Assembly (NCBI GenBank): GCA_946407495.1
Contig: CAMJOB010000001.1
Coordinates: 9,549-73,548, forward strand
Length of the DNA: 64,000 nucleotides
Direction: 5' to 3'
From: an uncultured Bacillota bacterium
GTDB lineage: Bacteria; Bacillota_I; Bacilli_A; RF39; UBA660
The translations under genes and the position numbers were made by a program. Shown piece by piece: positions 1,199-51,482 of this stretch (its first letter is position 1; every line of letters begins with the position of its first letter). Under the pieces are notes generated by a model. That model did not search any database, was not told the origin of the DNA, and saw only the letters and a list, made by a program, of their open reading frames with translations.

Positions 1199-1270
1199 TC
1201 CCTTATGGTGTAATGGTCAGCACAGGAGGCTCTAACCCTCTTAGTCTGCGTTCGAATCGTAGTAGGGGTA
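1199..1270 (+). tRNA. amber suppressor tRNA, anticodon CUA (reads UAG); short variable arm and mismatched 1:72 pair favour a Gln-type identity
   Basis: Manual cloverleaf: acceptor tccctta/taggggt (U1:U72 mismatch, A73), U8, D-stem gtgt/gcac with aatggtca loop (G18G19), anticodon stem ggagg/cctct, loop cTCTAac (U33, CUA, A37), 4-nt variable, T-stem ctgcg/cgtag with TTCGAAT loop; no encoded CCA. Confidence 0.8.
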
Positions 1271-1342
1271 CTTCTTCATACTTTTCACGTCACTAAGGTA
1301 TCGGATGACCTTATTGATTTTTACTGTTTTTAATCATGATAA

Positions 1343-2258: not shown

Positions 2259-4172
2259 ATGGAAATTACTAAACAAAACGGAAATATATGTTTCGCAGAA
2301 AAAGAACATATATATTGGGATCAAACAAATCCTAATGCTAAATATGTATCTGTAACTACTTTGATACATAGTTTTACACAACCTTTTGATAAAGAATTTT
2401 GGTCAGCGTATAAAGCATTAGAAAAAATATTAGATGCAGAATCTTGGAAAATTTTAAAGAAAGAATTATTACAAACTAAGAAATTTACTAAAGAAATTCT
2501 TTCAAATTATGATGTTCAAGAAATTGAATTTAATAAAGTACAACAAGATATACTAGATGACTGGCAACAAGAGAATTTTAAATCTTGTGAACGTGGAACT
2601 AAAATACACGCAGAATTAGAAAATTCAATGTATGAAATGGGAGCTAATGTAACTCTTAAAAAATTCGGAGTAGGTGGTACATTTACTTGTGAAAAAAATA
2701 GAACAGCATTAGACTTAGAAAATGGAGTTTATCCAGAATATCTTATTTCATACGAATCTCCAGATGGAATATTAAGAATAGCTGGACAAATTGACTTACT
2801 TGTTAAACGTGGTAACAAAGTTATAATAATGGACTGGAAAGGACTTCCTTTAAACACAAATATTCCTACACCCGATGGATTTAAACTATTAAAAGATTTA
2901 AAAGAAGGAGATATTATTTATGATAAAGATGGAAATTTTACAAAAATTTTACATAAATCAGAAATTCATAATAATCCTTGCTATAAAATAATTTTTGATA
3001 ACGGTGATGAAATAGTCGCAGATCATGAACATCGTTGGGAAATTTCTTTTAAAACTCAACCATCTTCAAAATGGCATGGTGAGTATAGACAAGAAGTTAT
3101 GACTACTGAACAAATTGCTAATTATTTAAAGCAAATTAAAGATAAAAAAACTTCTTATAATATTCCAAAAATATTAAATGCTAAACCTATTAAAACTAAT
3201 AATATAGATTTACCAATTGATCCATATGTTTTAGGTTGTTGGTTAGGAGACGGATCAAAACAATGTGGAATTATAACAAACGAAACAAATAATGTTTTAG
3301 GAGAAATTCAAAGAAGAGGATATACATTAGGAAACGATATTTCTGGAGAAAATAGAACATCTTCTTATACAATATTAGGAATATATTCAGCATTAAAACA
3401 ATTAAATTTAATTAATAACAAACATATTCCAGAACAATATATATTTAAAGCTTCTTATGAACAAAGATTAGATTTACTTAGAGGATTAATGGATACTGAT
3501 GGTTATTATAATCCAAAACGAAAAAGATTTGTAATGGAAACATCGCAAGAATGGCAATGTTACGATTTTATAAAACTTTTAGGAAGTTTAGGAATAAAAG
3601 CTACTAAATTTGATATTATTAAAAAATTAAATGGAAAAGAATTTCATGAATATAGTATTAATTTTAGTACATTATCTTTAAATCCTTTTTTAATGAGAAA
3701 TCAAAATATTGAATTTCCTATTAAAGATAAATGTTCTTTTAGAAATATAGAATCTGTAGAATTATGTGAAACTATTCCTACTCAATGTTTAGAAGTAGAT
3801 AGTCCTAGTCATACATTTTTATGTACTGAAAAATTTATAGTAACACATAATACGAATAAGAAAATTGATTTAAAAGGAGGATTTAATACTCAAACTAAAT
3901 CTACAGCTAAAATGCAATATCCATTAAATACATTAGATGATTGTAATTATATGCATTATACAATGCAATTATCTACATATGCTTGGATGATTAATAAATT
4001 ATTTGGATTTGAAATAGAAGATTTAATTCTTGTGCATTTTGACCATAATGGAAATAAAACGGTATATCATTTAGATTACTTAGAAAAAGAAGTAGAAAAT
4101 ATGCTCAAATTCCACAAAAAGAATTTATTAAAAGAAATACAGAGAAATAAAAGAGTTCCTATAGAATATTAA
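2259..4172 (+). CDS. PD-(D/E)xK (RecB/Cas4/YqaJ-like) nuclease interrupted by an intein; N-extein 2259-2840, C-extein 3852-4172; no TAG codons
   Basis: extein motifs GQIDLL (D), IIMDWK (DxK) and QLSTY (QxxxY) flank a 337-aa Hint+LAGLIDADG insertion; single 637-aa ORF. Confidence 0.65.
   Translation: MEITKQNGNICFAEKEHIYWDQTNPNAKYVSVTTLIHSFTQPFDKEFWSAYKALEKILDAESWKILKKELLQTKKFTKEILSNYDVQEIEFNKVQQDILDDWQQENFKSCERGTKIHAELENSMYEMGANVTLKKFGVGGTFTCEKNRTALDLENGVYPEYLISYESPDGILRIAGQIDLLVKRGNKVIIMDWKGLPLNTNIPTPDGFKLLKDLKEGDIIYDKDGNFTKILHKSEIHNNPCYKIIFDNGDEIVADHEHRWEISFKTQPSSKWHGEYRQEVMTTEQIANYLKQIKDKKTSYNIPKILNAKPIKTNNIDLPIDPYVLGCWLGDGSKQCGIITNETNNVLGEIQRRGYTLGNDISGENRTSSYTILGIYSALKQLNLINNKHIPEQYIFKASYEQRLDLLRGLMDTDGYYNPKRKRFVMETSQEWQCYDFIKLLGSLGIKATKFDIIKKLNGKEFHEYSINFSTLSLNPFLMRNQNIEFPIKDKCSFRNIESVELCETIPTQCLEVDSPSHTFLCTEKFIVTHNTNKKIDLKGGFNTQTKSTAKMQYPLNTLDDCNYMHYTMQLSTYAWMINKLFGFEIEDLILVHFDHNGNKTVYHLDYLEKEVENMLKFHKKNLLKEIQRNKRVPIEY
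2841..3851 (+). mobile_element. intein (Hint domain with LAGLIDADG homing-endonuclease core) inserted in the nuclease DxK motif; atypical Gly at position 1
   Basis: block A-like GLPLNTNIPTPDG...GDIIYDKDG, block B DHEHRW, LAGLIDADG motifs LGCWLGDGS and LRGLMDTDGYY, block F/G ...HTFLCTEKFIVTHN followed by +1 Thr. Confidence 0.75.
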
Positions 4173-5381: not shown

Positions 5382-7120
5382 TTAACTATTTTCAACAAGG
5401 AGGACAAGTTGCTGATGAAAAGCAACAAATGCAAGAAATGTTTATGCAGTATCTTGCAGAAAAATATCAAACAGAAGATATAAACGCATTAGTTTAGCAA
5501 TTATAGTCAGAACCAGGTGAAACAGGTGAAACTAAATTAGAAGATGAATTAATCTCATTTCAATAGATGTTACAACAAGGTGGACAAGCACCATTAATGG
5601 CAGAAAAAGGAGCAAAATTAGATTATATTAAATCACTTAAAGGATTTTGTCCAGACGGAACACAAGTTGAATATTATAAAAATGGTAAGAAAATTTGTGG
5701 TAAGTGTATTGCTAAACAAGAAAATGGTGCTAAAATGAACCAGAAGAAATTCTTTACTCCAGCTGATGTTCCATCTGCTTGTAAAGGAGGAAAAGCTAAG
5801 AAATCTTGCAATGGTGCTAAACTTACTAAGAAATGTAAAACAGGTGGAACCATAGAATTTTTTCAAAAAGGAGGAACTCCTAAACTTCAAACTATAACTG
5901 TTGATGGTAAACAATATGGTCGTTATAAAGCTGGACAGCAATGGAGAGAAGTAAATAATGGTAAATTAGGTTCTGCTAAATACGATATTCGTAATGGTAA
6001 AGCACAAATCTTATTAACTAAGGCTGCTAAAGAGCGTGAAGCAAATGAATCAACTGTAGTAAAAGCAAGTGGTGCAAATGCTAAAAACGCTAAATATGGT
6101 AAAACATATAGAGGTGGAGTTTATGCAAATGCTGCATCTCAAGCTGAAGCTGAGAAACGTGCTATTAACGATAAAGTACAATATTACGATTATAACGGTA
6201 AAGTTTATAAAACTAAGTGGAATGATACTCCAACTGCACAAGGTGTAATTGATAATAGAGTTGAAATGGCTGGTCTTTACGGAAACGACTTAGGTTGGCG
6301 TAATTCTGGACGTTATAATGCTAAATCTAGACAGCATCGTAATAATGAAAGAATTTCTGCAAACGGAATGTCTGATGCACAATTTAATGCACAAATTGAT
6401 GCACAAAGACAACAACAATTTGCTGATCAACATAACGCAGAACTTGCAGATAGAGATTTAGCAAAACGCGCAATTGCATCTGAACTTATGGATGCTTCTA
6501 CAGCAGGTTTAGCACGTGGATTTAATCCATTCGGATATACAAATGATATAGTTAATGGAAATTATGGTTCACTTGCAGGTAGAGGTGTTGAAGCAGGTCT
6601 TACTCTCGCTGGTGGATCACTTATGCCTAAGATTCCTGGTATGCACAGACTTGGAAGATATTCTGATGTATTAAGACTTAGTTTAAATAAAGGATTTGAC
6701 AAAGTTGATAATTTCTTATGGAATGGTGTTCCTCAAAAAATTGTAAGTTGGGGTGGACGTTATATGCCAAAGAATAATGGTGGCTTTGTTAGAACTTATT
6801 TTGCTGAACCTTCAATGAGAACAGGTTTAGAAAATGCTAATCCTGTTGATTTAACAGTTAATATTGGAGGTAAGATGGCTAAAGGTGCTGTTGAAGGTGC
6901 TAAAAATGCTGGTAGCAAGATTGGAACAAGTCTTTCTGAGTTTGGACAAGATGTTGGTGCATTAGGTAGACAAATTGGACAAGGAGTTAGTAACACTGGT
7001 GCTAAAGTTAAAAACGCTTGGGTTAATCATCCTGATGATGTTATGTTAGGTGCTGGAGTTATAGTTCCTTCAAGTACAGCAGTTGGAATAGCTGGATATA
7101 ACTATTTTAATAATAAATAA
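5378..7120 (+). CDS. hypothetical Gly/Lys-rich protein (580 aa) with three QQGG-type motifs and Cys pairs; 3 TAG in first 80 codons, none after
   Basis: frame 2 continuous from ATG 5378 through TAG 5537, 5546, 5603 into ORF 5567..7120. Confidence 0.5.
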
Positions 7121-7127
7121 TTGAATT

Positions 7128-7712
7128 ATGCAAAAGATCTTTGTATACAATAATGGAACAGGACAAATTGAATTAAACATTCCTGAAATAATTTTAATTG
7201 ATGAATTTCATGCTTTGATGGATAATAAGAGAAATGTTTGTAAAGAAGATCCTGAAGGTATTCAACATTTAAGAGCATTTAGAGAATTTACTTATATTTG
7301 GTTAGCTATTGATTGGTTAAGTTTATATAATGATTATTCTAATCAAGAAAGACACCAAGAAGCATTAAGAGATTCTCAATTAACTGAAGAAGAATTTAAT
7401 GATCCTATATTTAGAGCAGCTTGTAGAAAATATCGTGAATTACAAAACTCAACACGATCAATTAAACTTTTACAAGCTGCTCAATTAACAGTAGATAAAT
7501 TTATTGACTACTTTACTAATATAGACCCAGAAGAAAGAGATCCTCAAACTGGAAAACCTATATTTAAAGTAAAAGACATTATGGCAGAAATGTCTAACCT
7601 TAGTAAAGTGTTAGAAGAATTGAAAATTTTAACTGACCAAGTTAAGAAAGATACACAAGCTGAATCTAAAATTAGAGCAGGAGCAACAGAAGGATATACT
7701 CCTAATTTTTAA
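7128..7712 (+). CDS. hypothetical protein directly upstream of TerL (terminase small subunit candidate by position only)
   Basis: ORF 194 aa, no TAG, TAA stop 2 nt before TerL ATG. Confidence 0.3.
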   Translation: MQKIFVYNNGTGQIELNIPEIILIDEFHALMDNKRNVCKEDPEGIQHLRAFREFTYIWLAIDWLSLYNDYSNQERHQEALRDSQLTEEEFNDPIFRAACRKYRELQNSTRSIKLLQAAQLTVDKFIDYFTNIDPEERDPQTGKPIFKVKDIMAEMSNLSKVLEELKILTDQVKKDTQAESKIRAGATEGYTPNF

Positions 7713-7714
7713 TT

Positions 7715-10117
7715 ATGAGTGAAATTAAATATAATAAAGATGGAAGTATTGCTAAGAAAAGAGGACGTCCTAAAAAGTAGAAACCTGAAATTCCAATAGA
7801 ACTTCCACAAGAAGTACAAGATATAATTAAAAAGGCTACTGAAGAAGTTCCAAAAATTACTGAAGTTCAAGAAGATCCATTAGCTAAAGTAAAAGAAGCT
7901 GTAAGAGATTCTTTTAATGGATGGGATGTTCCTAAAGAAGAACGTATTACACGTTTTGATAAAAGACTTTCTTATGAACTTACTGGATATAAACCAATTA
8001 CTGCAACTAAAAGTTTAGACTTTAGACCAGAATGGTTTACAGAAGCCAGAGATACCTTTTTAAGAACAGGTAAATATTGTAGTTATCCATTTCGTTCTAA
8101 AGCATACGATGACTTTTGGCATGAAGAATATGTAAGATGTAGAGATGGATATACTGTAAATGGTTATACACTTACAGGACCAAACTATTATTATCTTAAC
8201 TATTATCAATTACCTAATATTGATGTAGAGAAAGCGGGTAGTGGACGTTTAGCTGTATTTCCAAAATTCTTAGTATTTCAATATGAGTTCTTTCATTATT
8301 TTGAAATATGTAGAATACTTAAAAAAGATGTATGTTTGATGAAAGCTCGTGGAGTAGGATTTAGTGAGATTAACGCTGCCATTTGTGCTTGTATTTATAA
8401 TTGCTTTAGAGAAAGTAACTGTATGATAACAGCACAACTTAAAAACTATCTTGATAAATCATTAGATAAAGCATGGAACGCTTTATCTTTTACAAACGAT
8501 AATACAAGTGGTGGTATGTTCAAACTTACACAAGTGCATAACACTCAATATTATAAAAAATCATCTTGGTACAAAAAAGAAAACGGACAAGATATTGAAA
8601 CAGGTTGGAAATCACAAATCGTAGGAATTGTAGCAGATACTGATGCTAAGATTCGTGGTGATCGTGTTGACTTACTTGTTTATGAAGAGGCTGGATCAAA
8701 TACAGCTTTACGAAAATCTTATATTAAGGGTAAAGCCTTAATATATATTGGTGGTAAAAAGTTCGGAATAAGAATGTGTGGTGGTACAGGAGGAGACCGC
8801 GGTATTGCACTTGCAGACCTTGCAGATATGTATAATGATCCTGAGTCTTTTGATGTATTACCATTTTATCACAATTATACACCGTCTGGAGATTGGATTG
8901 AAACTGCTTATTTCATTCCTTCTTATATTGGAGCTGTAACAGAATACGGAGAAGATGCTGATGGTGTTAAAAGAAGACTTCTTGATGAAAGAGGTTATTG
9001 TTTTTGGGAAAATTACAAAGAACAATTAGATTACGATAGATCCAAAATTAAAAATCCTAAAGCATTAATTGAACATTGCGCAGAGTATTGTTATACTGCT
9101 GATGAAGCCTTTGCACTTGAGGGTGAAAATAAATTTAATAAAGTTTTATTAACAGAACAATTAATGCGTATTCGTGTTTTAAAACAAGCACCTAAATTTG
9201 ATTATGGTGTACTTAAATTTAAATACGAGTCTGGAAAACAACATACAAGTGAAAACGTAAGAGGTGTAACTTGGCAATCTACCGCTAAAGGTCCAGGAAC
9301 AATCAAGATTCTTGAGCATCCTTTATGGGAATGTCAACCTAAGAAAGATGAATCTGGAATGATAATCTGGAATCCACCTGATAAACAAGCTAATTTATAT
9401 GTAGCTGGTTGTGACGGTATTGACTTAGGTAAACAAGATACATCTGAATATACAAAAGACCCTTCTGATTTTTGTCTTGTTATTTATAAAAGACAATTTG
9501 GATTAAGTGATCCACAGATTGTTGCTATTTATAAAGATAGACCACAAGACATAAGAGAAGCACATGAAACCGCAGTTAAATTAGCAATGTATTATAATTG
9601 TTTAATTAACATAGAGGCTTCACGTATATCGTTAGTCGGATATTGTAGAGACCGTGGATGGTTAAATTATTTAATGAAACGTCCAAGTATGTGTTTTTCT
9701 GATGTTACAAGAAAACATAGAGCAGGTTTACAATATGGTGTTCCTGCTACTGTAGCAAACATTGACCACCATACCGATTTAACAAGAGATTTCATAAATG
9801 ACTATTCACAAGGTATTTGGTTTGAAGAGTTCTTAGTAGAAGCTACCAAATATAGTGATGAAGAAAAACGTAAATTCGATATTATTGCTGCTACAGGTAT
9901 GGCACTTATGGGTAATGAAGAATTAGGTTCATTAGTTCCTAAAACAGTTGCACCTGTAGAAGTAAGACATCAAGATATTGGATATTATACAGATGATAGA
10001 GGAATTAAACGATTTGGTGTTATTCCAGATAAATACGCTGTTAAACTTAAAATAACACCTCCAACTAAAACATATGGATATGGAAGACAAACTAACCCAA
10101 GATATAGAGACTATTAA
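7715..10117 (+). CDS. terL: terminase large subunit (TerL); one TAG at codon 22 (7778-7780)
   Basis: Walker-A-like KARGVGFS, ATPase core DRVDLLVYEEAGS, C-terminal RNaseH-like nuclease region (YVAGCDGIDLG); frame 2 continuous from ATG 7715 into ORF 8336..10117. Confidence 0.85.
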
Positions 10118-10361
10118 ACAAGAAGTTATTGATATAGTTGAAGAATTATATGAATGTAAATTTATAGGTAAATTAAAAGTTACAGCATTAGATCCTGTTG
10201 GATATTCTGTAGCAATTGATTTATTATAGGGTGAAGATCCCATATTTATCACTGCAGAATTTCCTCATGATAAATTCTTAAAATTCTTATGTGAAGAATT
10301 AAGAATGAGAACTTTAGATAGAGTACAATTATTTGGTTTATATAAAGTATTTCCTAAATGA
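10074..10361 (+). CDS. small hypothetical protein (95 aa) overlapping TerL 3' end in another frame; one TAG (10227); TGA overlaps portal ATG
   Basis: frame 0 ORF from ATG 10074 through TAG to TGA 10359-10361; acidic helix-rich. Confidence 0.3.
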
Positions 10362-12553
10362 CTGCTGAAGACGAAAGATTAATAGAATTAACAAACAGAA
10401 CGATTTCTGATTTAGTATACGAAAAGACGGAACTTCAGAAAGCGTATAACATATATAATGGAAAACGCGACAAAGAGTAGTATAAGTATCTTGAAGATAA
10501 TTTCGGAATAGGTACACCTACCTCTGTCGAGTTTACTCCATTAGTAAGAAAGCACGTTGATGCTATGGTAGGTGAGTTTTTAGGAACTCCTATATTACCA
10601 AAAATTACGTGTAAAGATAAAGAAACAATAAGTAATATACAACGTGAAAAGCAACTTAAAATAAATGCTGAAATTGTAGATTATTTAAAGCATCATTTAC
10701 AAAATTAGATTTTAAGATTTATTACAGGAAAAGCAATGGATGATACTTCTGTTAAAAATAAACTTCAACAAATTGTAGAAGATTTAGATGAAGATTTTAT
10801 TTCTGAATATGAAGTTGCTGCTTAGAATGTAATACAATATATTTTACAAAGTAGAAGAACTGATTTATTAACTAAATTAAAGTTAATTTTACTTGATTTA
10901 TTTATATCAGGATATACTTTTTATAGAGCTAAACCTTCTACTGCAAAAACTAATGTTGAAGTAGAAGTTTTAGATCCAAGAAATACATTTATTGATAGAA
11001 ATCCAGAATCTCCTTATGTAAAAGATTCATATAGAGCTGTAGTTAGAAAATGGTTGAGTAGACCAGAAATATTAGCTCGTTATGGAAAAGATTTATCAAA
11101 AGAAGATGTTGATAAATTAAGAGAAGAATTTGAAGGATTAGATCAAGGTGGAAGTTTTTATAGAAGAAGTCTCGAAGGTGTTCCTTCTCCAATGTCAGAA
11201 GGAATACAAGCAAGATTTGAAGGAACAATAGGTCTTGATGCTGAAAGTAATGCAAATTATAGACTAATTCCTGTATATGAAGTAGAATGGATAGAAACCG
11301 ATGAAAATTTTGTAATGCAGAGATATGAAACAATTCGTATTGGAGATAACCAATCAGAAGATAGTTTCTTTATCTTAAAAGGAAAGAATGAAAATGTAGT
11401 TCGTTCTAAAGATGATCCTGCATTTTGTACATTATCAATAAATGGTTTATACTTTTTAAATAGAAACGATGAACCTTATTCTTTAGTTTTAGCTTGCGCG
11501 CATCTTCAAGACAAATATGATATACTTCACTTTTTCAGAGATAATCTTATTGCAAATAGTGGCACTGTTGGTGATTGGATCGATGTCTCGCTTATTCCAA
11601 CATATTTAGGACCAGAACCAACAGAAAGACTGCTTAAATGGATCAGTTACAAAAAATCAGGAATAGGATTAATTGATACAGCTCAAGAAGGTAGAATTGC
11701 TTCAGGACAAGCTCCACTTAATCAAACTTTTAGTGGCTTTGATGATACTATTAAAGCTCAAGCAATTCAATCTATACAATTAGCAATAGAAGATGTTGAA
11801 AATAACTGCTCTTCTATTACAGGTGTATTTAGAGAAAGACTTCAAGGTATAGAACAACGTGATGCTGTTACTAATATTAAACAAGGTGTTCAAAACTCGT
11901 TTATTGTAACTAAGCAATGGTTCCATCAAATGGATACTATTACTGCAGAATTATTAATTGATTCTTTAAATGTTGCTAAAGTTGTTTATAAAAAAGGACT
12001 TACAGGAACAATTATTCTTGGTGATAAAAGACAGAAAATATTTACTGCTTTACCAGAATATTTCACAGTAACTGATTATGATATAAGTGTTGTTACAAGT
12101 TCTGAATTAATTCAAGACTTGGAACAAATAAAAGCAGTAGTTCCAGAATTTATTAAATCTGGACAATTACCTGCTGATATATTATTTGAAATTATAACTT
12201 GTAAGAGTCCATCTGATATTAAAATAAAAATCAGAAAAGCCTTAAAGAAACAAAAAGAAGAAAATAATACAATTCAGCAATTACAACAACAATTACAAGA
12301 AGCTCAACAACAATTACAACAATTACAAAATGAAAATTCTCAGCTTAAATCTAAGGTTGAAGCACTTAATGAAAAGAGACTTCAATTAGATGCTCAGAAA
12401 ATTCAACTTGATAATAAAGTTAATATGTTTAAAGCTCAAACTGATAGAGATTACAAAACAATTGAAGCACAAGTTGATCAAGATAAAGTTAAGATAGAAC
12501 AGGCTCAATTATACGATAATAATCCATATAATGATAAAATTAGAATGTCATGA
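10358..12553 (+). CDS. portal protein (call by size, position after TerL and C-terminal coiled coil); 3 TAG codons
   Basis: frame 2 continuous from ATG 10358 through TAG 10475, 10706, 10823 into ORF 11054..12553; 731 aa. Confidence 0.55.
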
Positions 12554-15500
12554 ATAAAAAGTTATCAAGTTTCGAAAGTATATCTACCTCAGAAATAAAT
12601 GATAGTTCAGTTTATGTATCTGCTGTTTAGAAATTAAAAGATGGTAGTTATAAAAATATTAATATTCCTATTTCTCAACTTTCTGGTTTATGGAATAACG
12701 ATGTTCAACTGGCTATTGCTAATGCAGATTTTGAGGGAGGTGCAATTGATGCTGAAGTAATTCATCAGGCTGCTTTATAGGCAGTAGATGCTGCATTAAC
12801 AGAAGCAAGACAGGCTGTTAATGCAGCTATCGCTGCTGCAAATGATTTTGCAGGAGATGTTGCTACAGGTAATACAGCAACATAGAAAGCAATTGCTGAT
12901 GCTCAACAGCAATTAAATCAAGCTATTCAAGATGGACAATCTGTAGTAGCTTAGATGCAAACTATGTATGCACAATATTTTGGAGATAATGGTGAAGTGC
13001 GTCAAGCATTAAACGAAGCAAATAGAGATTTAAATACATCTAGAGCACTTTTAACTTCAGCACAAGAAGATTTACAAGCATTAGCAAATGGTGAAATTAC
13101 TCCAGAAAGTTTACATGAAATCGAAAGAACTGTAAACGGAATTAAAGAAATGTGGGGAATTGAAGGTACTTATGTTAATTCAGAAGGTACTGTTGCAAAT
13201 AAAGTGTTAGAATATGTAGACATGGCATTAGCACAAAAGAATTTAAAAATGACTAACATTAATGGTGAAACTAATAATGTTACATCATTTGAACAACTTG
13301 TTGATGCTGCTAATGGAATGTACACAACTACATTAAATAGAATGAATACTGCTGAACAAAAAGTTACTCAAATGCAAGAAGAGTGGGATGTAACAAAAGG
13401 TGAAATGTCAGAATATGTAAAAACTTCTGACTTTAGCGATCCTACTAAAGCATCACTTAAATCAGCAGTAAAATCAATGACTGATAGTTTAATTAAACAA
13501 ACAGTTAGAGATACAACTTTAGATGTAATCACAACAATAACTATTCCTATTAACTCACCTCAAGGTTATACAGTGAGAGTTCCAAATATTGAAAAAGAAA
13601 CTTTCTATTATATGTCTTGGGATGATGCAGAAGGTGATAATGCAATTCCTTTAAATTATCAATTTAAAGTAGTTGCAAGTGGTAATGCTGTCCCATCTGC
13701 AGATAATAATAGTTGGAGTCCTTTAACTTTAGATGGAGTTAATTCTCCTACTGTTGTAGCCTATGACAATGAAAATGTTATTCCAGATACTAATGATAGA
13801 TATTTATTCATTCAGTATAATGGATTAGGACCAGCAACTAAACAAATTGATGTAAAAGTATGTATTGAAAAATACTTATCACAAACACAAATATAGCAAA
13901 CAGCTAATGCTATTGTTTTATCTGCAATTAATAGTTTAAAAGAAGGAGGACAATTAGCATCTAGTTTAACTCTTACAGACGACCAAATTAGTACAGCTGT
14001 AAGAAGATATTTTAATAGTATTAATTTCAATGCAACTAGCATAAAACAAACTGCCGATCTTATTCAACAAACAGTATTAAGTTTCTTAGACGAAGGAAAC
14101 AACAATTATAGAACATTACAATCTGTAATTAAATCTGCTAAAGATTCTATTGAACAATCTGTTGAAGATTATACTTTAACTTTATTAGAAGAATTTAAAA
14201 ATAGTGCTCCTAATACTGACCATAAAATAAATACTGATTATAGTATTGATAATAGTGGTTCAAGTATCACATTTAAAAATAGAAGAAGAATTATTTCAAA
14301 TCTTGAACAAGGACATACATATTTTATAAAATGCGTTGCTTTATCAAAAATTTATTATAAGTACGGAACTTATAATTTTGCAAATGTAAACGTAGATGTT
14401 GCTTTCCTTGAAAATGAAAATAACGGATGGACTAAAGTTGTAACTCCAGATTCTATTAAAGTAGATGTTCCTAGTGATGCATCTTGGAGTACAATTACAT
14501 TCTTCATAGAATGTGCAAAGAATAATGCTAATCCACCTCAGTATTTAGCAAATAATGATTTTTCTGTTCAAGTATTTGAAACTGCAACATCAAAAGCTGC
14601 TAATTTCAAAATTACTCCTGAAATGATTAAAGAAACCATTAGTGGTGATACAGGAGCTGATGGAATTATCCATTAGATTTATCAAAGACTTGCTCGTCCA
14701 AGTGGAACTTCAACAACATGGGGAGAAGTAGGTGGTGGATTCTTAAATCAAGCACAAGTTGATGAGAGTGCAGAAGAAATATGTAGAACATTAATGGGAA
14801 TGAGTACAGGAGATGCTTCTACTGATCCTATTGTTAGATCAAGTGAGTTAAAACAATCTTTAGATGAAATAAAATCAGATGTAAGTAAAATTCAGTATTT
14901 AGCTCTTAAAAACGAAGGAGATGATGCTCTTTCATCTGAATATTTCGGAATAAGTAATAAATCTGGATTTAATTATTTAAATGGTATATCACAATATTAG
15001 AAAGGTCCAGAATTTGATATAACTCCAAATGCAGATGCTTTTGGATATTTTAAAATAAAGGTTCCTTATCCAAATACAGACTATACTCTTCTTTTAGTTG
15101 ATTTAGATAAATATAATTTTGGAGAAGTTCACTTTGTAAATGCTGAAACTCTTAATAGCATTACAGAAAATAACTTCAAACAAGATAAATCACATACATC
15201 TTGTGTTTATACACCTGATACTAATTATCCAACTAAAAATAAATTAAATCCATTACATTTTGAAAGTGTAACAACAGGATATTTATCATTTAAAATAATT
15301 AGAGCTGCTGGCAATAACAATACTTTAAATGCTACTTATTTTTAGAACAATCCTGTTCATGTAAAATTAGGTATTCCTACAGATGTTGCTGTTAGTAACA
15401 TTAAACAAACAGCGGATTCTATAACAGAACAAGTAAGTAGTTTAGAAGAAACATGGGGTCCAAATGGAGAAAAAGCTCAATCATTAAATACAGCTTTATA

Positions 15501-18054
15501 GAGTATTACACCAAATGCTATAGAGTCTGTAGTAGCAGAAGAGATTGATGGTAAATTAACTGGTTACTCTACAATAGAACAAACTAAAGATTTTATTGCT
15601 TCTACTGTTGGTGCAGCTGGTGCAGTAACTAATAAATTCCATGATCCTTTATTTAAACATGATTATAGTTATTGGCATAGAAGATATAGTAATTATCCAA
15701 ATTATTCTAATATTGCAAATATAGTTAGTCCAGCTGCTAACGTATATAATAAATATTATGATAATAACAATAATTATTATCAAATAAACTCTTCAAATAT
15801 ATTAGAAAAAGATCTTAAATCATTTATAATATATGATAATAATACTTTAAATATTAACGGTTTAAGTGCTGAAGATAGAAGACATATTTATGGATTATAT
15901 ACAAATTTAAAAGTAATATCTGGTAATAAGTATACAGCATCATTTTATATTAAATTACCTGCAGTTTTTAGTTCAGGATATACATCACTTATCGATGTTC
16001 CTAATTCAAATAACAAATTTAGATGTTCTTTCCAAAATCTTATGTTAAATGTAGGATTTGTAGATGAATTAGCAAAATTAACTCCTAATTTTTATATTAC
16101 TCTTCTTTCTACAGAAAATTCTCTTGAAGATATAGAAAATACAGAATATACTATTGTTGATGGAGAAGAAGTTGAAAATTGGAGTTCAGAAACTCTTTAT
16201 AATACTCAACATAAAAAAGCATATAAGTTTAATAATCAAGGAAATTTAACAGGAAATGGATTTAATAATGGATCAGTTGATCTTGATCAATTTGGATTAT
16301 GGATTAAATTCGGATAGGGTAATTTATTAAATTATTTAAATAAAGCATTTACTATAAGTCTTGGAGATGTTGATAATTCTGGTATAAATATAGAATAGAA
16401 TATAAGATATAGATGGTTTAAAATATGGTTTACATTTACTGCTGATAATAAGCATATTGTTAAAAATTCCGATACTTCATTAACAAATATTGTGGATGAT
16501 CGTGATAGAGCATTTTGTTTTGAACCTTGGACTAATATTTATTCAAATAAATATTCAAGAATATTCTGTGAATTTGCTGCTCCTATGTTAAATTCTGGAA
16601 CTACACCTTTAAAGTTTAGTTCTCAAGAAAAATCTGATGAAGTTTATAGTGTAATTAGTCAAACTAAAAATGCAATTGATTTATCTATAAATAATGTTAG
16701 ACAAGGATTAGAAAAAGTAGGAATAACAATAGATGCTGAACATCCAGAAAAAAGTAAAATAAAACTTAATGCAGATGTATTAGAAGCTGATTTAGCTGAA
16801 GCTACATTTACAGGAAATATTAAAGCAAAAAGTTTTGAAGTACAACCAGAAGGTAGTGATAGTTCTATTTCATTAGTTATTTATAATCCAGACGATACTA
16901 GTTTTGTTCATAAATATATAACTGATCACAATACAACTTTAAAAATAAGTGCGGGAACTCCTGTTTTAGTTTCAACTGTAGGTGAGGATGTATATTTAAT
17001 AAACTTAACTAAGATTAATAAAAATGGAGACATTACATATTATTTTAAAATACGAACAGATATTCCTATTACAATAAAAAATATAGGATATTCTGAAGAA
17101 TCTGGAAGTACTATATCTACATTTAAAATTAAACCAGTAAAATACTTTTTAGATAATGTTTATAATATATATTTAGAGAAATATGTAGCAGAATCAATTG
17201 TAGATACTTAGAATAACACAATAACACTTGGTAATGTTACTTCAAATTCTTTCTATAATAGTCTTAATTGTAGTGGTTTTACTTTTAAGTATTCTACAAA
17301 TGAAGGTGATAAGTCATTAACTTTTGACGGTAATGATAAACCATATATAAAATCTACAGGAGTTTTAAAATACAAATCTATAAATTTAAAACAAGTTGCA
17401 CAAAACATTAGAGATATTAATTATTTTTCTATTAATAGTCCTGTATTTTCATTAGATTATTCAAGGGGCGGCGATATTTATGATATGCCAATATACAGAC
17501 ATAATTTTAGTCAACCAGGTAATTCTGCTTATGATTCAGCTGGAAATCTTCATGTTACAAATGAAGGTTCATTAAGAATGTTTAAAGTATATAAAAACAT
17601 AAATAGTTCAGGAACATTAATTGATTTAACTCACTTTGAAAATAATAAGCGTTCTGATGATAAATATTGTTATGCTATAGAATCTAAAGATCGAACAACA
17701 GGAGAGATTTTCTATCAAATCTTAGGATTTTATAATATTACAACTTATTTTGGAGATCTTACAAATAATAATCGTTATTATGGTGATATTTATGATGTTG
17801 AACAAGGTGATGGTTCAAAATGTTTTTCAATAGCAGAAAATATAATTAATAATTGTTTTGTAATAGGATGTTTTATTAGTAAAAATCTTAATGAAAATAC
17901 ATTAACTGATAATAATAATAGCTATAGAGTATTTTTCAATGAAGATGAATGTACTAGACTTAATGACAGATTATCACGTGGTTATGCAGGAGCAATAGGA
18001 AAAGCTAATAATTCTTGGAATAGTAAAAAAATTATAGTAGATAAGTACAATTAA
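12550..18054 (+). CDS. giant virion-associated protein (1834 aa) read through 12 TAG codons; function unknown (head/tail fibre or decoration-like)
   Basis: single frame (frame 1) with no TAA/TGA for 5.5 kb; joins ORF fragments 12955, 14794, 16042, 16492, 17485; ATG overlaps portal TGA (ATGA). Confidence 0.55.
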
Positions 18055-18064
18055 TAAAATTAAA

Positions 18065-18105
18065 ATGGAAGGGAATGATTCTCTTCCATTTTTTATTTAT
18101 TTATA
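18065..18105 (+). terminator. rho-independent terminator after the 1834-aa ORF
   Basis: 11-bp stem atggaagggaa/ttctcttccat with 3-nt loop followed by ttttttatttatttat. Confidence 0.6.
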
Positions 18106-22509: not shown

Positions 22510-24279
22510 ATGAATATAAATAACGGAAAAACAGGAAACGTAAACATCCCTGGAGCACTTCATTCTACAGGTGGCGATGGAGATGGTCAAGTAGGTGGAG
22601 TTGTAGCTTATGCTGGAGATATTTACGATGAAACTCTTGGGAAGAATCAAAAAGAAATTAACCAAACACTTTTAGATGGAAGTGCAGATTCTAATGTTAT
22701 AGTTGTTGCTTTAAATGATTTAAATGAGAAAGTTGAAGAACAAGAAAAAGTTACTTCTGAAGCATTAAATGATTTAAATGAAAAAACAGATAATTTAAAT
22801 AAAGATATTGAAGATTTAGAAAAAACTACATCTTCTTCATTAAACGATTTAAACGATAAATTAAATAATTTAGATAATAATGAAACAATCACATCTATTT
22901 CATTAAATGATTTAAATGAGAAAGTAGATGATTTAAATGATAAAACAAATAATGATGAATTAGTTACAGCATCTGCTTTAACTGATTTAAATGATAAATG
23001 TATACAAAAAGATGAAGATGGAAATGTAATTATTTAGAAAATTAAATTAGATGTATCAAAACCACCTAGACAAATAAATGAAAGAATAAAAATACAATTT
23101 ATAGATGATATAGATTTATTTGTTTCTCAATATATAAAATTACTTAAAATTATATACGAATCTGAAATATCTAATCTACCTGCTGATTAGGTAAATGAAT
23201 TTTGGAATGAACAAGAACAATCAATTCGTGAAAGACAAGAAAATTATAAATTATTTATAATTAATAATGATAAATATAAAAATTTAATAATTTCTGAAAT
23301 TTATGATGCTAATAATAATTTAGTAGAAGAAGTAGAAGGTGAAATTCCAGGATTGATTATGATTCCTAAAGAATCTTCTATTGTAGCTAATACTGATTAT
23401 TATCTTAATAGTTTTCATGTAATTGATGAAGAATTTATAACTATTTTTGATTTAAAAAGATCAGGAAAACTTTATTTACAAGGAGTAGGTAATTATGGAG
23501 AATCTAATTCTAATGAAGAATCAGATGAAGAATCAAGTGAAAATTCTGAAAATCCTAAATCAGTACAAGAAGTAATTTTTGATTTAAAAAATAATTTACA
23601 AAATCTAAATTTAGATTTTAAAAATAATTTAAAAATAGACAGTCAAGGAAATTTAGTTGTTCATGAAATAGGAACTTACGAAAAAGAAACACATGGATCA
23701 TCTGGCTTTCATTTATCAGATGATTATGAAAAAATATATACAGCTTTAACTTATGATCCAGATTCTTCTACTACTCCTCAATTGGATGTTTATACTCAAG
23801 AAGAGTTAAAACAAAAATTAGTACAAGATAATTTAATTAATCCTGATTATTATTATTATGTAGTAGTAAATTATGATGGATCACCATATTTAGCAGGTGA
23901 TAGTTTTTATAATCCAAATAATATTGATGGTTTTTCAAAATTTGTAAGAATAAGAATGAATGACGATTATGTTGAGTTTTCTGATTATATTGAAAAACGT
24001 AATAATGATGATATTATTGCTTATATAGTAATTGGATTAGAAACAGAATTTTCTGGAGATCTTTCAAATGTACTTTTAATGTATGACCATTATCCTAAAT
24101 TTGATAAATATATAAGTAAAATCAATTTAAATGATGGAAAGTTATATTTATCAGGAATAGGTAATTATACACCAACAAATCCTTCTTATAATGGTATTCT
24201 TAGTCTTTAGGAAGTAATTGCAAATTTAACAAGCAGAATTGAAACATTAGAAAATCAATTAAATGGAGGAAATTCTTAA
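22510..24279 (+). CDS. fibre-like protein with coiled-coil LNDLNEK repeats (589 aa); 3 TAG
   Basis: frame 1 continuous through TAG 23035, 23188, 24208 to TAA 24277-24279. Confidence 0.45.
22708..23000 (+). repeat. tandem ~14-codon repeats encoding (S/A)LNDLNEK, six or more copies
   Basis: gcattaaatgatttaaatgaRaaa-type units repeated in frame. Confidence 0.6.
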
Positions 24280-25597: not shown

Positions 25598-27970
25598 ATG
25601 AAAAATTGTATATTAACAGTAATTAAAAATGAACATGAATATCTTGATGAATGGATACAATATCATTTAAATTTAGGAATAGATTATATTTTCATATTTG
25701 AAGATATAGATAGTGATTCACATAAAGAAATCACAGATAAATACGATAAAGTATTTTTGAAAAACATAACATTCTTATTTAATGAAAAGGAAATTAAAAA
25801 GATAAAGGAATCAAAAATATCAAAAACACAAGGAAATATACAACATATGTATTATAAAAGTGGTATTAGTTATATTAAAAAACAATATAATTTTGATTGG
25901 TGTTTTGTAATAGATGACGATGAATTTATCACGCTTGAAAAAGATAAAAATTTAACTAATGTTTTATCTTTATATAATAATTATGATGCTGTTATATTAC
26001 AATGGAAATGTTATGGTGCAAATAGATATGTAAATAAACCAGATTATAGTAAAGGAACTATTGAAACATTTACAAAAGAAATTACAGGAAAATTACCTGA
26101 CCGATCTAAATCTTTAGTTAAAACTTGTTATAATTTAAATAAATATAAAGAAGGAAATCTTTCATCTCAACATTTACCTTCATTAGATTCTAATTGGTGT
26201 AAAACAGATTTTAGTAAAAATATAGAAATTCCTATTTATAACAATATTTTTATAAGACATTATGTAACAAGGTCTTGGGAAGAATGGATTTGGAAAACAA
26301 AAACAAGAGGAAGTTTTTGGGGAGAAACAAGACATTTAGATACATTCTTTGAAATAAATCCAGATATGGAATATTTAAAAAAGGATTTAATTAATGATTA
26401 TAAAAATAACATAACAAATTGTATTTTTACAATTATTAAGAATGAGCAAGAATATTTAAAAGAATGGATTGATTATCATTTGAATTTAGGTATTAATTAT
26501 ATATTTATATTAGAAGATTTCGATAGTACAAGTCATAAAGAAATTACTGATAAATATTCTAATGTAAAATTAGTTAGAGCTGAAGAATTTCTTACGAAAG
26601 AACAACTTCAAGAAGCAATCGAATTAAAAAAGAAAACAGCTCCTCAAAATTTTTATCTTAAACTTGCTCTTAATCATATTAAAAAATGTCATTCATATAT
26701 AGATTGGTGTTTTATAATTGATAATGATGAGTTTTTAACATTAGAAGAAAATAAAACATTACAAGATATATTTGTAGAATTTCAAAGTTACGATGCTTTT
26801 ATAATGCATTGGGAATGTTACGGAGCAAATAATCTTGTATTTAAACCCGATTATTCTGAAAAAGGAGTTGTTGAAACATATACAAAACCAGCAAGAGGAA
26901 GATTATTAAATGAAGATCGATTAAAAGTTAAAACTTGTTATAATATGAATAAATATAAAGATGGATATTTATTTAATATGCATACTCCATCTAATATTTG
27001 TTCTAATAAATGTAATACAAATCATAAAACTAATTTCTTAAATGAAACATATAAAAATATTTATATTAGACATTATATAACAAGATCTTTAGAAGAATAT
27101 CTTTGGAAAAAAGAATCACGAGGACAACAAGAAAGGCGTGATGATAATTTATCAATGTTTTATTGGATAAATCCAGAAATGAAAGATAAAAAAGAAGAAG
27201 ATTTAAAATTATTAAGACCAGAAACTTTAGTAATTTTACCGTATGTTCAAACAGGAGCACAAGGTAATGAAATTAGATTGTGTTTAAACGCTTGGAAAAA
27301 ATTCTGTACTTTTGAATATAAATTTATTGTAGTAGGAGAATTTTCAGATGATTTAAAAACTGAATATTCTTGGGTTGAATTTATGCATTTCTCTAAAATG
27401 AATGATACTAAAGGAGAATATACTCCACATCTGGATATATTTAATAAAATGTTTATATTAATGAATAAATACTATTCACATCAAAACTTTATTTATATTA
27501 CAGATGATGAATATGCAATTAAACCTTTTACTTTAGAAGATATTACAACTACACATTATTTAACTAAAGAAACAAAAGGAAATCCTAATTCACCTTCAAA
27601 TTATTGGTCTAATAATTTATGGAAAACTAAAAAATATTTATTAGAACATAATCATCCTGTTATTAATTATGTAACTCATTATCCTGTATATTTTAATATT
27701 GATAAATTATTAGAACTTGAAAGAAAAATCAATTTAAAAAAGAATAGTTATGTATTAGAAAACTTATATTTTAACATATTCCCTACAAAAAATATGATAC
27801 AAGTTGATTCTATAAGATTAGGTATTTGGGATAATGATATTTTTAGAGATAAATTTAAAGATGCTATAAATAATCCAAATATTAAATTTGTTTGTAATAG
27901 CGTAAAAGGTTGGAGTAAAGAATTAGAAATTGAATTAAATAAAATAATAAACGATGGAAAAACTAACTGA
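25598..27970 (+). CDS. multidomain glycosyltransferase: two tandem GT92-like (DUF23-type) domains plus a third DDE(Y)-containing C-terminal domain (790 aa)
   Basis: repeats NEHEYLDEWIQYHLNLGIDYIFIFED...DWCFVIDDDEFI and NEQEYLKEWIDYHLNLGINYIFILED...DWCFIIDNDEFL; single ORF without TAG. Confidence 0.5.
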   Translation: MKNCILTVIKNEHEYLDEWIQYHLNLGIDYIFIFEDIDSDSHKEITDKYDKVFLKNITFLFNEKEIKKIKESKISKTQGNIQHMYYKSGISYIKKQYNFDWCFVIDDDEFITLEKDKNLTNVLSLYNNYDAVILQWKCYGANRYVNKPDYSKGTIETFTKEITGKLPDRSKSLVKTCYNLNKYKEGNLSSQHLPSLDSNWCKTDFSKNIEIPIYNNIFIRHYVTRSWEEWIWKTKTRGSFWGETRHLDTFFEINPDMEYLKKDLINDYKNNITNCIFTIIKNEQEYLKEWIDYHLNLGINYIFILEDFDSTSHKEITDKYSNVKLVRAEEFLTKEQLQEAIELKKKTAPQNFYLKLALNHIKKCHSYIDWCFIIDNDEFLTLEENKTLQDIFVEFQSYDAFIMHWECYGANNLVFKPDYSEKGVVETYTKPARGRLLNEDRLKVKTCYNMNKYKDGYLFNMHTPSNICSNKCNTNHKTNFLNETYKNIYIRHYITRSLEEYLWKKESRGQQERRDDNLSMFYWINPEMKDKKEEDLKLLRPETLVILPYVQTGAQGNEIRLCLNAWKKFCTFEYKFIVVGEFSDDLKTEYSWVEFMHFSKMNDTKGEYTPHLDIFNKMFILMNKYYSHQNFIYITDDEYAIKPFTLEDITTTHYLTKETKGNPNSPSNYWSNNLWKTKKYLLEHNHPVINYVTHYPVYFNIDKLLELERKINLKKNSYVLENLYFNIFPTKNMIQVDSIRLGIWDNDIFRDKFKDAINNPNIKFVCNSVKGWSKELEIELNKIINDGKTN

Positions 27971-39350: not shown

Positions 39351-39929
39351 ATGGAAATTAAAAGAAGCTCGAATTATATTGAAGCAATAAATTAGCTATT
39401 TCCTGAAGTTTCTAAAAATGATATAAAAAGAATTATGGAATATGGATGGAAATAGCTATATTTATTAAATAGTTATGGTGGAGATACACTTATTACAAAC
39501 AATGGTTTTTGGATGTATACAGGAGCATTAACACCTGATTCTTTATATTATATGAGATATTATTGCAAAAAATTAGCACGAAAGATACGCATTTTATACA
39601 AAAGAAAGAAAAAAACTTGGGATGGGTATTATTATTTTGCATTAACAACAGCTCAATATGAAGAATATTTAAAGTAGAAGAAAAAGAGAGGTCGCCCTAA
39701 GAAACATTTTAAATATGGAAACATATTTTTATATAAAATAAAAGATGAATGTAAAGTTTCTTAGTGGGGATGCACACATATATTTAGAGTTCCTTATATC
39801 TCAGATTTTGGATATAAAATATATAAAGAAGATTATAATACAGATAATGCGGAACTAATTGAAGAAAGAGAAGTTCCTAAATTTAAAGATATTTTAATAA
39901 CAAACAATAATTACGAAGTACTAAAATGA
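39351..39929 (+). CDS. hypothetical basic protein (192 aa); 4 TAG
   Basis: frame 0 from ATG 39351 through TAG 39393, 39444, 39675, 39759 to TGA 39927-39929. Confidence 0.4.
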
Positions 39930-42900: not shown

Positions 42901-43507
42901 AATTAGGGATAAACAAAGAAGTGATTTAGAAAATACTCTTAAAACATTAGGTATTCCAGTAAATAATATCAAATTTAAATCAGAAACTAATCTTTCTGAA
43001 TATTTAGAGATAAATGATTCTGTTACTTTTAGTACACAAGTTGATAATGTTGTTAGAGAAGGATTAGCATTAAAATCATTCGATAAAAATATTTTAGTTA
43101 AAACTTGTCAAGGTTTGGTTTATACTTTACCTAAAACTAAATCTTTAAATGAATCACATATTTATGGAATTAAGAATAATTCTGAGTATACTGATTTATC
43201 AGCAATCCATTTAAGTAATTATGATGATTATTATAAGATTTTAAATAACTTATCTTATAATGAGCAAAACGGAGTAATTAATTATTCTGGATATTTATCT
43301 GAAAATGGAAATAACAATCTAAGTCCTTCTTATATAGATATATTAAAATTAGATGAAGATAAAACATTAGTAATAGACCTTGATAAATATAGACGTATTG
43401 CAAACAGAAGTTGGGATATTAACAACTGTGGTCGATACAGTGTAACTAGAATACAAGGAATATCTAGTAAGTTCTCATTCTCTAAATTATTAAATGTATT
43501 ACGCTAA
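39926..43507 (+). CDS. large tail-associated structural protein (1193 aa); single TAG at codon 3
   Basis: ATG 39926 overlaps upstream TGA (ATGA); atg aat TAG gca...; continuous with ORF 39965..43507. Confidence 0.5.
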
Positions 43508-48777: not shown

Positions 48778-48778
48778 T

Positions 48779-51466: not shown

Positions 51467-51482
51467 TTAAAATTAATAATAA

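Follow-up and report, generated by a model that had tools for sequence, protein, structure and literature searches.

A giant gene directly after the portal gene of a distant crAss-like phage probably encodes one fibre-like protein with TAG read as glutamine

We describe a giant open reading frame (ORF) that lies directly after the portal gene in a 64,000-nucleotide stretch of DNA (the window). The ORF is probably one gene that belongs to a distant crAss-like phage, in which TAG is read as Gln, and that encodes a fibre-like protein of the virion. Taken separately, a single full-length product with TAG read as Gln is very likely, and the assignment of that product as a fibre or adhesin is reasonably likely. 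The gene is single and conserved, and its protein is modular and mosaic. The tRNA, the portal gene, the giant ORF with its segments and the terminator described below lie on the forward (+) strand.

Results

The giant ORF and its neighbourhood

The giant ORF occupies positions 12550-18054 and comprises 1834 sense codons (ATG plus 1833) followed by TAA. Twelve TAG codons lie in frame, at 12628, 12778, 12883, 12952, 13894, 14674, 14998, 15343, 15499, 16315, 16396 and 17209. No TAA or TGA was found in this frame across the 1834 codons, which bears out the preliminary description of a 5.5-kb frame broken by TAG alone. At the base composition of the window, the probability of 1834 codons without TAA or TGA is ~1e-57, and TAA/TGA-free runs in 20 shuffles of the window reached at most 193 codons. 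The remaining two frames of the same stretch contain 93 + 7 and 156 + 100 TAA + TGA codons, and no minus-strand ORF of at least 90 aa was found in the region. With TAG read as Gln, the product has a mass of ~204.6 kDa and a pI of 4.9.

The ORF is positioned directly 3' of the genes for TerL and the portal, within the virion module. The portal gene (10358-12553; 731 aa, three in-frame TAGs) was identified by its match to phrog_6547 (portal, E = 6.8e-42), and its TGA at 12551-12553 overlaps the giant-ORF ATG at 12550-12552, which agrees with the ATGA overlap reported earlier. Behind the ORF lies an intrinsic terminator (18062-18102), which consists of a 14-bp hairpin at 18062-18092 (-17.9 kcal/mol, z = -4.8) and a subsequent T-run, so that the strong terminator previously placed at 18065 was recovered. 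This terminator is kept in all nine loci compared (the window and eight relatives), with compensatory changes in the stem, which confirms the TAA as the end of the giant ORF. Downstream within the window are three further fibre-like ORFs and a separate block of giant ORFs (39926-59332).

TAG as a sense codon

In total, the window holds 62 in-frame TAGs spread over 40 ORFs, which include the portal gene, TerL and the giant ORF. All 40 modelled ORFs stop at TAA or TGA, a result that is partly so by construction. The ORF for the major capsid protein (MCP; 32680-34098) and two neighbours (31532-32665 and 36368-37486) are TAG-free. A phage suppressor tRNA with anticodon CUA, which reads UAG, is located at 1199-1271 (ARAGORN; 52.4 bits with the Rfam tRNA model). 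ARAGORN labels this tRNA 'Pyl' from the anticodon alone, and the residue it carries is presumably Gln.

In a 30-sequence alignment of the family, Gln makes up 47% of residues in the columns of window TAGs, 51% in CAA/CAG columns and 1.9% in all others. At the DNA level, CAA is the commonest partner codon of TAG in the nine loci, and Gln accounts for 21% of TAG partners against a background of 3.8%, which is a ~5.5-fold enrichment. Codons 27 and 112, both TAG in the window, fall in nearly invariant Gln columns, where seven of eight relatives have CAA. To judge from its sequence, this is a phage of genetic code 15, with TAG acting as a sense codon that is equivalent to Gln. Since the phage tRNA-CUA would decode all 12 UAG codons of this putative late structural gene, the ORF from ATGA to TAA is expected to yield one 1834-aa polypeptide, with the conserved intrinsic terminator behind it.

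The gene in related phages

Eight syntenic relatives with available DNA carry the same gene directly after the portal gene, with 1770-1879 codons and 5-12 TAGs at mostly different positions, and full-length giant proteins are present in 29 database clusters. This conservation upholds the earlier suggestion of one giant structural protein. All nine loci share one and the same start context, TGTCATGAA, and end in a TAA stop, with no in-frame TAA or TGA over their 1770-1879 codons. Their TAGs occupy 47 alignment columns, of which 24 are singletons and none is TAG in more than four loci. At every position where the window has one of these TAGs, five or more of the eight relatives have a sense codon, most often CAA, and protein conservation continues unbroken across every TAG of the giant ORF. 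The preliminary description had looked to non-recoded relatives for separate genes with stops at the TAG positions; no such split was seen in the eight relatives, all of which are themselves recoded.

The family is lineage-restricted, with ~7 representative clusters among 1.84 billion. A profile search of these representatives with the N-terminal 1030 aa returned the family itself and weak matches to the linkers described below, and nothing else, and a search with the C-terminal 810 aa returned same-family fragments and nothing else. The giant protein had no match by tblastn among 50,697 phage records and no usable match in Pfam, PHROGs, NCBIfam or a PDB sequence profile, and phmmer found nothing similar among all ORFs of L003, L004 and crAss001 or in the rest of the window. 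Among related contigs, one derives from a bovine metagenome.

Domain architecture of the predicted protein

AF2 models were made for monomers of P0001, a proxy that is 97% identical to the window protein, and their confidence was moderate (mean pLDDT 60 and 50). At the start is a nearly invariant module (aa 1-60; 12550-12729) that keeps 70-100% identity to the window in the aligned family members, includes a beta-hairpin predicted with low pLDDT at aa 22-40, and presumably serves as the virion-attachment anchor. An Ala/Gln/Glu-rich helical stalk of coiled-coil-like character follows (aa 61-320; 12730-13509), for which AF2 predicts helices at aa 68-323. Its hydrophobic periodicity is 3.5 residues, and the segments analysed between aa 99 and 280 exceed the 99th percentile of shuffles.

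Throughout the monomer models, long heptad-periodic helices alternate with beta domains. Beta domain 1 (aa 321-445; 13510-13884; pLDDT ~66-87) gave generic jelly-roll or carbohydrate-binding-module (CBM)-like matches in Foldseek and no other. It is followed by helical linker L1 (aa 446-545; 13885-14184), which is of the 'IKQTAD' type and homologous to linker L3 (hhalign probability 85%, E = 6.7e-6). Beta domain 2 (aa 546-690; 14185-14619) is composed of strands with pLDDT ~50-70, and the helical, Gly-rich linker L2 (aa 691-800; 14620-14949) was assigned from AF2, hhalign and periodicity. Beta domain 3 (aa 801-940; 14950-15369) has pLDDT ~67-86 for the most part, with a dip near 880-900. Linker L3 (aa 941-1030; 15370-15639; VSNIKQTAD...GYSTIEQTKDFIASTVG) shows heptad periodicity at aa 939-995 and forms the junction for cassette exchange. 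L3 is 60-99% identical in all family members, whereas identity in its flanks falls to 18-50%.

The exchangeable cassette is beta domain 4 (aa 1031-1355; 15640-16614; pLDDT ~60-88), a large jelly-roll-like domain. In P0002 and P0003, domain 4 is 39-47% identical to that of the window and the upstream part is 89-100% identical, and the reverse holds for P0009-P0013, with 88-91% in domain 4 and 18-73% upstream. Linker L4 (aa 1356-1425; 16615-16824), which was delimited by AF2, family identity and hhalign, leads into a hypervariable, beta-rich C-terminal region with a helical tail (aa 1426-1834; 16825-18051), as judged from AF2 and family identity. Over aa 1561-1834, identity to most family members is 13-24%, and several discrete C-terminal types are present. 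We presume that the C-terminal region (aa 1426-1834) is the ligand- or receptor-binding end.

Domain prediction along the length, which the preliminary description had proposed, thus recovered a helical stalk and jelly-roll-like beta domains in the AF2 models, but the fold matches are generic: three Foldseek searches, two of PDB and one of BFVD, yielded low TM-scores, with matches to jelly-roll/CBM folds or weak matches to phage tail proteins. Internal duplication of the beta domains was not detected by hhalign, in which L1 and L3, both linkers, were the sole related pair. A search of the window for a diversity-generating retroelement found no template/variable repeat pair in which the giant ORF takes part.

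Discussion

Comparison with known systems

In crAss-like phages, metaproteomics has shown that TAG is read as Gln through peptides that span TAG-encoded Gln; among the proteins concerned is a tail-related one that falls into six pieces under the standard code (Peters et al., 2022; PMC9523058). The window shares with code-15 crAss-like phages the presence of in-frame TAGs in late and structural genes, a phage tRNA-CUA, the alignment of TAG with Gln of homologues, and the fragmentation of genes under code 11 (Yutin et al., 2021, PMC7886860; Borges et al., bioRxiv 10.1101/2021.08.26.457843; PMC9523058). It differs from them in that the MCP ORF and its two neighbours are TAG-free inside a recoded module. 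Furthermore, the lineage is distant from the named crass families: in tblastn, its portal gene reaches 21-28% identity to portal genes annotated in crAss-like phages.

Programmed read-through, as in Q-beta A1 or retroviral gag-pol, likewise involves a UAG within a longer frame that is decoded by a tRNA. However, those systems rely on a single stop that is conserved, as is its context, and make two defined products, whereas the giant ORF has 12 unconserved TAGs that swap with CAA within a reassignment of the codon across the genome, and a given TAG position is shared by four of the nine loci at most.

In phiCrAss001, the genes directly after the portal gene (gp20) encode a trimeric head fibre (gp21) and a trimeric tail fibre (gp22) (PMC10172136). 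The giant protein resembles these proteins in its genomic slot, in a short conserved N terminus that might dock in a virion pocket, and in flexible distal domains. It is far larger (1834 aa versus 97 and 832 aa) and, unlike gp21 and gp22, seems to fuse a stalk and several binding domains in one chain. Comparison of the giant protein with crAss001 gp21 and gp22 by hhalign gave a probability of 0.1-0.4%, which is no significant similarity. Homology to gp21 was considered on the basis of a manual alignment, in which the N termini are in register from Met1 with 10/37 residues identical, several of them family-invariant; it was rejected as unsupported (hhalign 0.13%; the N-terminal HMM run against the crAss001 ORFs gave E = 0.45, second among 65) and kept as a lead.

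The 'IKQTAD' linkers (aa 449-546 and 948-1025) match Gp58-like (PF07902) and central tail fibre J proteins of siphoviruses weakly (E = 5e-6 to 2e-4 among 1.84 billion proteins). Two linker-matched proteins scored as Gp58-like below the Pfam cut-off, and one of them also matches Phage-tail_3 and the PHROG 'central tail fiber J'. In contrast to these proteins, the giant protein contains neither Phage-tail_3 nor a tip-attachment domain, and the linkers alone match, in part for compositional (coiled-coil) reasons.

Evidence for a fibre and for a single product

Because the giant protein has no family match, its function as a fibre has to be inferred from context and architecture. The slot matches that of crAss001, in which TerL and the portal are followed by the gp21 head fibre and the gp22 tail fibre, and the three further fibre-like ORFs of the window come after the giant ORF. 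The helical stalk and beta domains of the AF2 models, the heptad periodicity, the cassette mosaicism and the hypervariable C terminus all argue for a fibre, as do the jelly-roll/CBM and weak tail-protein matches in Foldseek and the weak linker matches to Gp58-like and central tail fibre J proteins. A conserved N terminus is combined with a variable, mosaic distal part, with exchange at conserved linkers. The predicted plan would thus comprise an N-terminal anchor, a stalk resembling a coiled coil, four beta domains of jelly-roll-like (CBM-like) type on conserved helical linkers, and a hypervariable end. Phages would exchange distal cassettes by recombination at these linkers, in the manner of receptor-binding proteins. 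The protein would be attached to the tail, which is the more likely site, or to the head, and any oligomeric state assigned to it would likewise be presumptive. An alternative that we consider unlikely is that the full-length protein is no external fibre but internal cargo, an ejection protein or another non-adhesin component of the virion or its assembly. The modest AF2 confidence and the lack of homology to any characterised fibre leave room for it, and crassviruses package very large internal proteins (PMC10172136). However, the crAss001 cargo and RNA-polymerase genes come after the muzzle gene, far 3' of the capsid genes, and it is the block at 39926-59332 that occupies this place in the window. 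Cassette exchange and a hypervariable C terminus are, moreover, typical of host-contacting proteins, and a coiled-coil stalk alternating with jelly-roll beads is fibre-like.

The number of products can be weighed separately. Competition between a suppressor tRNA and host RF1 means that suppression is rarely complete. The preliminary description had raised a nested set of products with ratios set by UAG suppression. In a functional version of this set, deliberately partial suppression would give a ladder of C-terminally truncated proteins that end at particular TAGs, each with its own role. Consistent with this proposal, TAG makes up 16% of the Gln-like codons of the giant ORF while the most abundant capsid genes are TAG-free, and A directly follows 52% of in-frame TAGs versus 30% of CAA codons (p = 9e-4), which would fit selection on context. 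The placement of TAGs at domain boundaries held in part, because the TAGs at 13894 and 14998 (codons 449 and 817) are near predicted edges but the one at 16315 (codon 1256) falls within a beta domain that is conserved. Against these points, TAGs turn over freely between loci and swap with CAA at invariant Gln columns, and some relatives have just five TAGs in the same gene, placed elsewhere. Four of the 12 TAGs fall within the first 135 codons, where termination would leave stubs of 26-134 aa. The enrichment of A after TAG extends to close relatives but is weaker there, the depletion of T is seen in the window alone, and L003 and L004 show no bias. A functional nested set is therefore very improbable with TAG positions so unconserved, although some truncated by-products of the giant ORF may exist. 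That the region instead holds separate standard-code genes that share one frame by chance, with TAG as a true stop, is already refuted. Code-11 fragments of 313, 259, 271, 270 and 280 aa look gene-sized, but the others measure 22-114 aa. A TAG with ATG immediately 3' does exist, as was noted previously, but at 12952-12954 rather than 12949, and in relatives this ATG corresponds to Met or Ile and codon 135 to Ser, Glu or TAG. For the other 11 TAGs, 24-348 codons separate the TAG from the next ATG in the frame, which argues against several genes, and yet protein conservation runs straight past each TAG. Moreover, all 12 TAG positions are occupied by sense codons in relatives, the portal gene, TerL and most late genes likewise carry in-frame TAGs, and an open frame of this length has the vanishing chance probability given above.

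A rather unlikely variant of the single full-length product is that the number and context of TAGs adjust how much of each late protein is made, because suppression competes with host RF1, and thereby delay it until suppressor tRNA accumulates. Such a throttle fits the TAG-free MCP gene and its two neighbours as compared with the 12 TAGs of the giant ORF, and the phage might then tolerate, or even use, the short N-terminal fragments that arise at the first four TAGs. If true, it would partly vindicate the idea of ratios set by suppression, in the form of gene dosage and not of defined nested isoforms.

Significance

The giant ORF is an ordinary example of the published TAG-to-Gln recoding in crAss-like phages, and as this recoding is already established, our finding holds no new principle. 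It does offer a clean worked example of how gene calling under code 11 breaks a predicted virion protein of roughly 205 kDa into 13 pieces. Furthermore, it defines an unannotated family of giant, modular, probably fibre-forming proteins in a crAss-like lineage of which little has been described. Within this family, the conserved linkers that flank the jelly-roll cassettes would mark the points at which host-range determinants are swapped, which may be of use in host prediction and engineering.

A single TAG-containing frame follows the portal gene

The preliminary description placed a 1834-codon frame directly after the portal gene, joined to it by an ATGA overlap, interrupted by 12 TAGs and closed by a terminator, all of which was confirmed by reading the sequence, by a chance estimate and by conservation of the hairpin. 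The giant ORF (12550-18054, +) comprises ATG, 1833 further sense codons and TAA, with 12 in-frame TAGs (12628, 12778, 12883, 12952, 13894, 14674, 14998, 15343, 15499, 16315, 16396 and 17209) and no in-frame TAA or TGA. Its ATG (12550-12552) shares bases with the TGA (12551-12553) of the portal gene (10358-12553), which matches phrog_6547 (E = 6.8e-42) and, by tblastn, annotated crAss-like portals; the ORF preceding the portal encodes the large terminase (7715-10117; phrog_6681). At window composition (29% G+C), the probability of 1834 codons without TAA or TGA is ~1e-57, the longest such run in shuffled windows was at most 193 codons, and the other two frames of the stretch contain 100 and 256 of these triplets.

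Downstream of the ORF lies a 14-bp hairpin (18062-18092; -17.9 kcal/mol, z = -4.8) followed by a T-run. Each of the nine loci examined has this hairpin 3' of the orthologous stop codon, the stem differing between loci by compensatory changes, and the terminator is genuine. Three stem variants occur among these loci (the window and related phage loci L002, L005-L007 and L009-L012), namely GGAAGGGA/TCTCTTCC, GGAAGG(A)A/T(T)CCTTCC and GGAGAAGA/TCTTCTCC, and the structure is kept in each by compensatory changes.

TAG behaves as a drifting glutamine codon

Reading the window with only TAA and TGA as stops yields a dense, nearly all plus-strand gene array, in which 62 in-frame TAGs are distributed over 40 ORFs. 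ARAGORN detected a tRNA with anticodon CUA at 1199-1271 (+), whose 'Pyl' label rests on the anticodon only. Manual folding of this tRNA gave a U:U mismatch at 1:72 and an A73 discriminator, and it adjoins a phage tail lysozyme gene (1381-2079, -; PF18013) that lacks TAG.

Database homologues of the giant ORF form 29 clusters, mostly full length at 1762-1879 aa. In their alignment, Gln accounts for 47% of residues at window-TAG columns, 51% at CAA/CAG columns and 1.9% at all others. Some database Gln residues may themselves derive from TAG, and the test was therefore repeated on DNA, using the window and the eight loci (L002, L005, L006, L007 and L009-L012) that carry an orthologue directly 3' of the portal gene. 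These eight orthologues share an identical start context (TGTCATGAA), end in TAA, lack in-frame TAA or TGA and each contain between 5 and 12 TAGs in frame. TAG occurs in 47 columns of the nine-locus alignment, 24 of which are singletons, and in no column do more than four loci have it; at every TAG site of the window, five or more of the eight relatives have a sense codon. The top partner codon of TAG is by far CAA, and Gln makes up 21% of partner codons against a background of 3.8%. At window codons 27 and 112, seven of the eight relatives have CAA in columns that are nearly invariant Gln. These data agree with published crAss-like phages, in whose peptides metaproteomics detected Gln at TAG positions; one of the proteins concerned is tail-related and falls into six pieces under the standard code (PMC9523058).

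Alternatively, the region could comprise several standard-code genes, or partial read-through could yield a nested set of products, as had been proposed beside a single giant structural protein. Under the standard code, the region breaks into pieces of 26, 49, 34, 22, 313, 259, 107, 114, 51, 271, 26, 270 and 280 aa. The next in-frame ATG lies 24-348 codons downstream for 11 of the 12 TAGs and protein conservation restarts right after TAG, which rules out separate genes. The sole TAG-ATG pair (codons 135/136), previously placed at 12949, lies three bases further on at 12952, and relatives have Ser, Glu or TAG there, followed by Met or Ile. Codons 1-135 contain four of the TAGs, and stopping at these would release only stubs of 26-134 aa. 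Of three TAGs thought to mark domain boundaries, those at 13894 (codon 449) and 14998 (codon 817) are indeed close to predicted domain edges, but that at 16315 (codon 1256) is internal to a beta domain, in its conserved motif LWIKFG-Q-GNLL, and none of the three is kept as TAG across the family. Nested products ending at domain boundaries are thus unsupported, and full-length orthologues in eight loci with conservation continuous across TAGs favor one giant protein. Truncated by-products of incomplete suppression are physically possible, and nothing in the sequences points to defined nested isoforms. The comparison across relatives, with its non-conserved sites and interchange with Gln, suggests that TAG in this gene is an ordinary, freely drifting Gln codon.

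Recoding has also been suggested as a gate on late genes (bioRxiv 10.1101/2021.08.26.457843). TAG accounts for 16% of Gln-like codons in the giant ORF and is absent from the major capsid gene (32680-34098; phrog_11589) and from two nearby ORFs (31532-32665 and 36368-37486) that may also encode abundant virion proteins; each of the three has 9-22 CAA/CAG codons and lies inside the recoded late module. A is the next base after 52% of the 62 window TAGs, versus 30% of CAA codons (p = 9e-4); T follows 8% of these TAGs, versus 21% across all codons. Close relatives show a weaker A bias (45% versus 32%), none is seen in L003 and L004, which are more distant and recoded to a greater extent, and the T depletion was not replicated in relatives. 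The absence of TAG from the capsid gene, set beside its use in the giant ORF, and the A bias would fit a role of TAG as a mild translational throttle, without establishing it.

The encoded protein is predicted to be modular

The giant protein showed no family match in Pfam, PHROG, NCBIfam or PDB sequences, and tblastn of 50,697 phage records returned none. Searched against 1.84 billion representatives, a profile of the N-terminal 1030 aa recovered only its own family (~7 representatives) and weak matches to the helical linkers. Two of these linker matches have sub-threshold Gp58-like similarity, and one of the two also hits Phage-tail_3 and PHROG 'central tail fiber J'. Two of the linkers, 446-545 and 941-1030, were aligned with each other as homologues (hhalign 85%).

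AlphaFold2 models were built on database orthologue P0001, which is 97% identical to the window protein, and were of moderate confidence (mean pLDDT 50 and 60). They predict a small N-terminal beta-hairpin (residues 22-40), long helices (68-323) and beta domains at about 324-440, 544-677, 783-943, 1065-1355 and 1425-1735, separated by helical linkers. Only the stalk (99-280) and the linkers (463-530 and 939-995) show hydrophobic 3.5-residue periodicity above the 99th percentile of shuffles. Foldseek returned only generic jelly-roll or CBM-like matches, all with low TM-scores. Among the PDB matches are Cry8Ba2, tandem CBM51 and CBM22, and the capsid jelly rolls of picornaviruses and polyomaviruses, and among the others are a siphovirus tail protein, a lactococcal neck passage structure and an uncharacterised crAss-like protein in BFVD.

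Over residues 1-60, every aligned family member shares 70-100% identity with the window. Homologues P0002 and P0003 match the window at 89-100% identity over 1-1030 but at only 39-47% over 1031-1360; for P0009-P0013, identity is only 18-50% across most of the first 940 residues but 88-91% over 1031-1360. The last 270 residues, at 13-24% identity in most members, fall into discrete C-terminal types. Cassette exchange takes place across conserved linkers, and this mosaicism is the strongest clue to function.

Putative mobile insertions in the window and its relatives

A 637-aa ORF (2259-4172, +) encodes a PD-(D/E)XK exonuclease (phrog_298) split by a ~340-aa insert with a LAGLIDADG domain (PF14528), which also matches intein-bearing terminase PHROGs. 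Because the exonuclease is uninterrupted (300-301 aa) in L005, L006 and L007, the insert looks like an intein. The large terminase is encoded by one 800-aa ORF in the window; in L001, L002 (6240-9761) and L006, a 295-aa ORF weakly similar to LAGLIDADG separates terminase parts of 353 aa and 429 aa, which suggests a mobile intron or homing-endonuclease insertion in only some relatives.

Gene order and architecture suggest a virion fibre

In PhiCrAss001, TerL and portal are followed by gp21 (trimeric head fibre), gp22 (trimeric tail fibre) and more fibre components, and the capsid, barrel, muzzle and cargo genes come later (PMC10172136). The window has the same order, with the giant ORF in the gp21/gp22 slot, followed by three fibre-like ORFs, the major capsid gene and a block of giant ORFs (39926-59332). 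A fibre-like ORF (22510-24279, 589 aa) contains four tandem ~75-nt copies (22712-22998) encoding 'LNDLNEK'-type coiled-coil repeats. Also among the fibre genes, a TAG-free 790-aa ORF (25598-27970, +) has a tandem duplication with a period of about 810 nt, the unit being a GT2-type glycosyltransferase domain (PF13704).

Based on the mosaicism, the predicted structural features and gene order, we read the giant-ORF product as a probable virion fibre or adhesin. The protein would attach to the particle by its invariant N-terminus, more likely at the tail than at the head, and the distal cassettes may bind host or gut surface glycans. A resemblance of the N-terminus, in the same register, to the capsid-binding N-terminus of gp21 was rejected, as statistics gave it no support, and no relationship of the family to the crAss001 fibres was detected.

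L003 (12393-14060) and L004 (about 6630-10142), whose portals show 54% identity, have in the slot after the portal gene fibre-like ORFs that are shorter and unrelated (555 aa in L003; 161, 235 and 630 aa in L004), and therefore the giant ORF is, on this comparison of loci, confined to one sub-lineage. L003 and L004 are recoded more heavily, with 13-15 TAGs in the portal gene alone.

The recoding mechanism is already known and validated elsewhere, and the giant gene adds another example; the family to which its protein belongs is narrow and has no annotation. The product of the giant gene is best described as a modular phage fibre in a crAss-like phage that uses code 15, in which UAG is read as Gln, and the giant ORF is real and ordinary for such phages.
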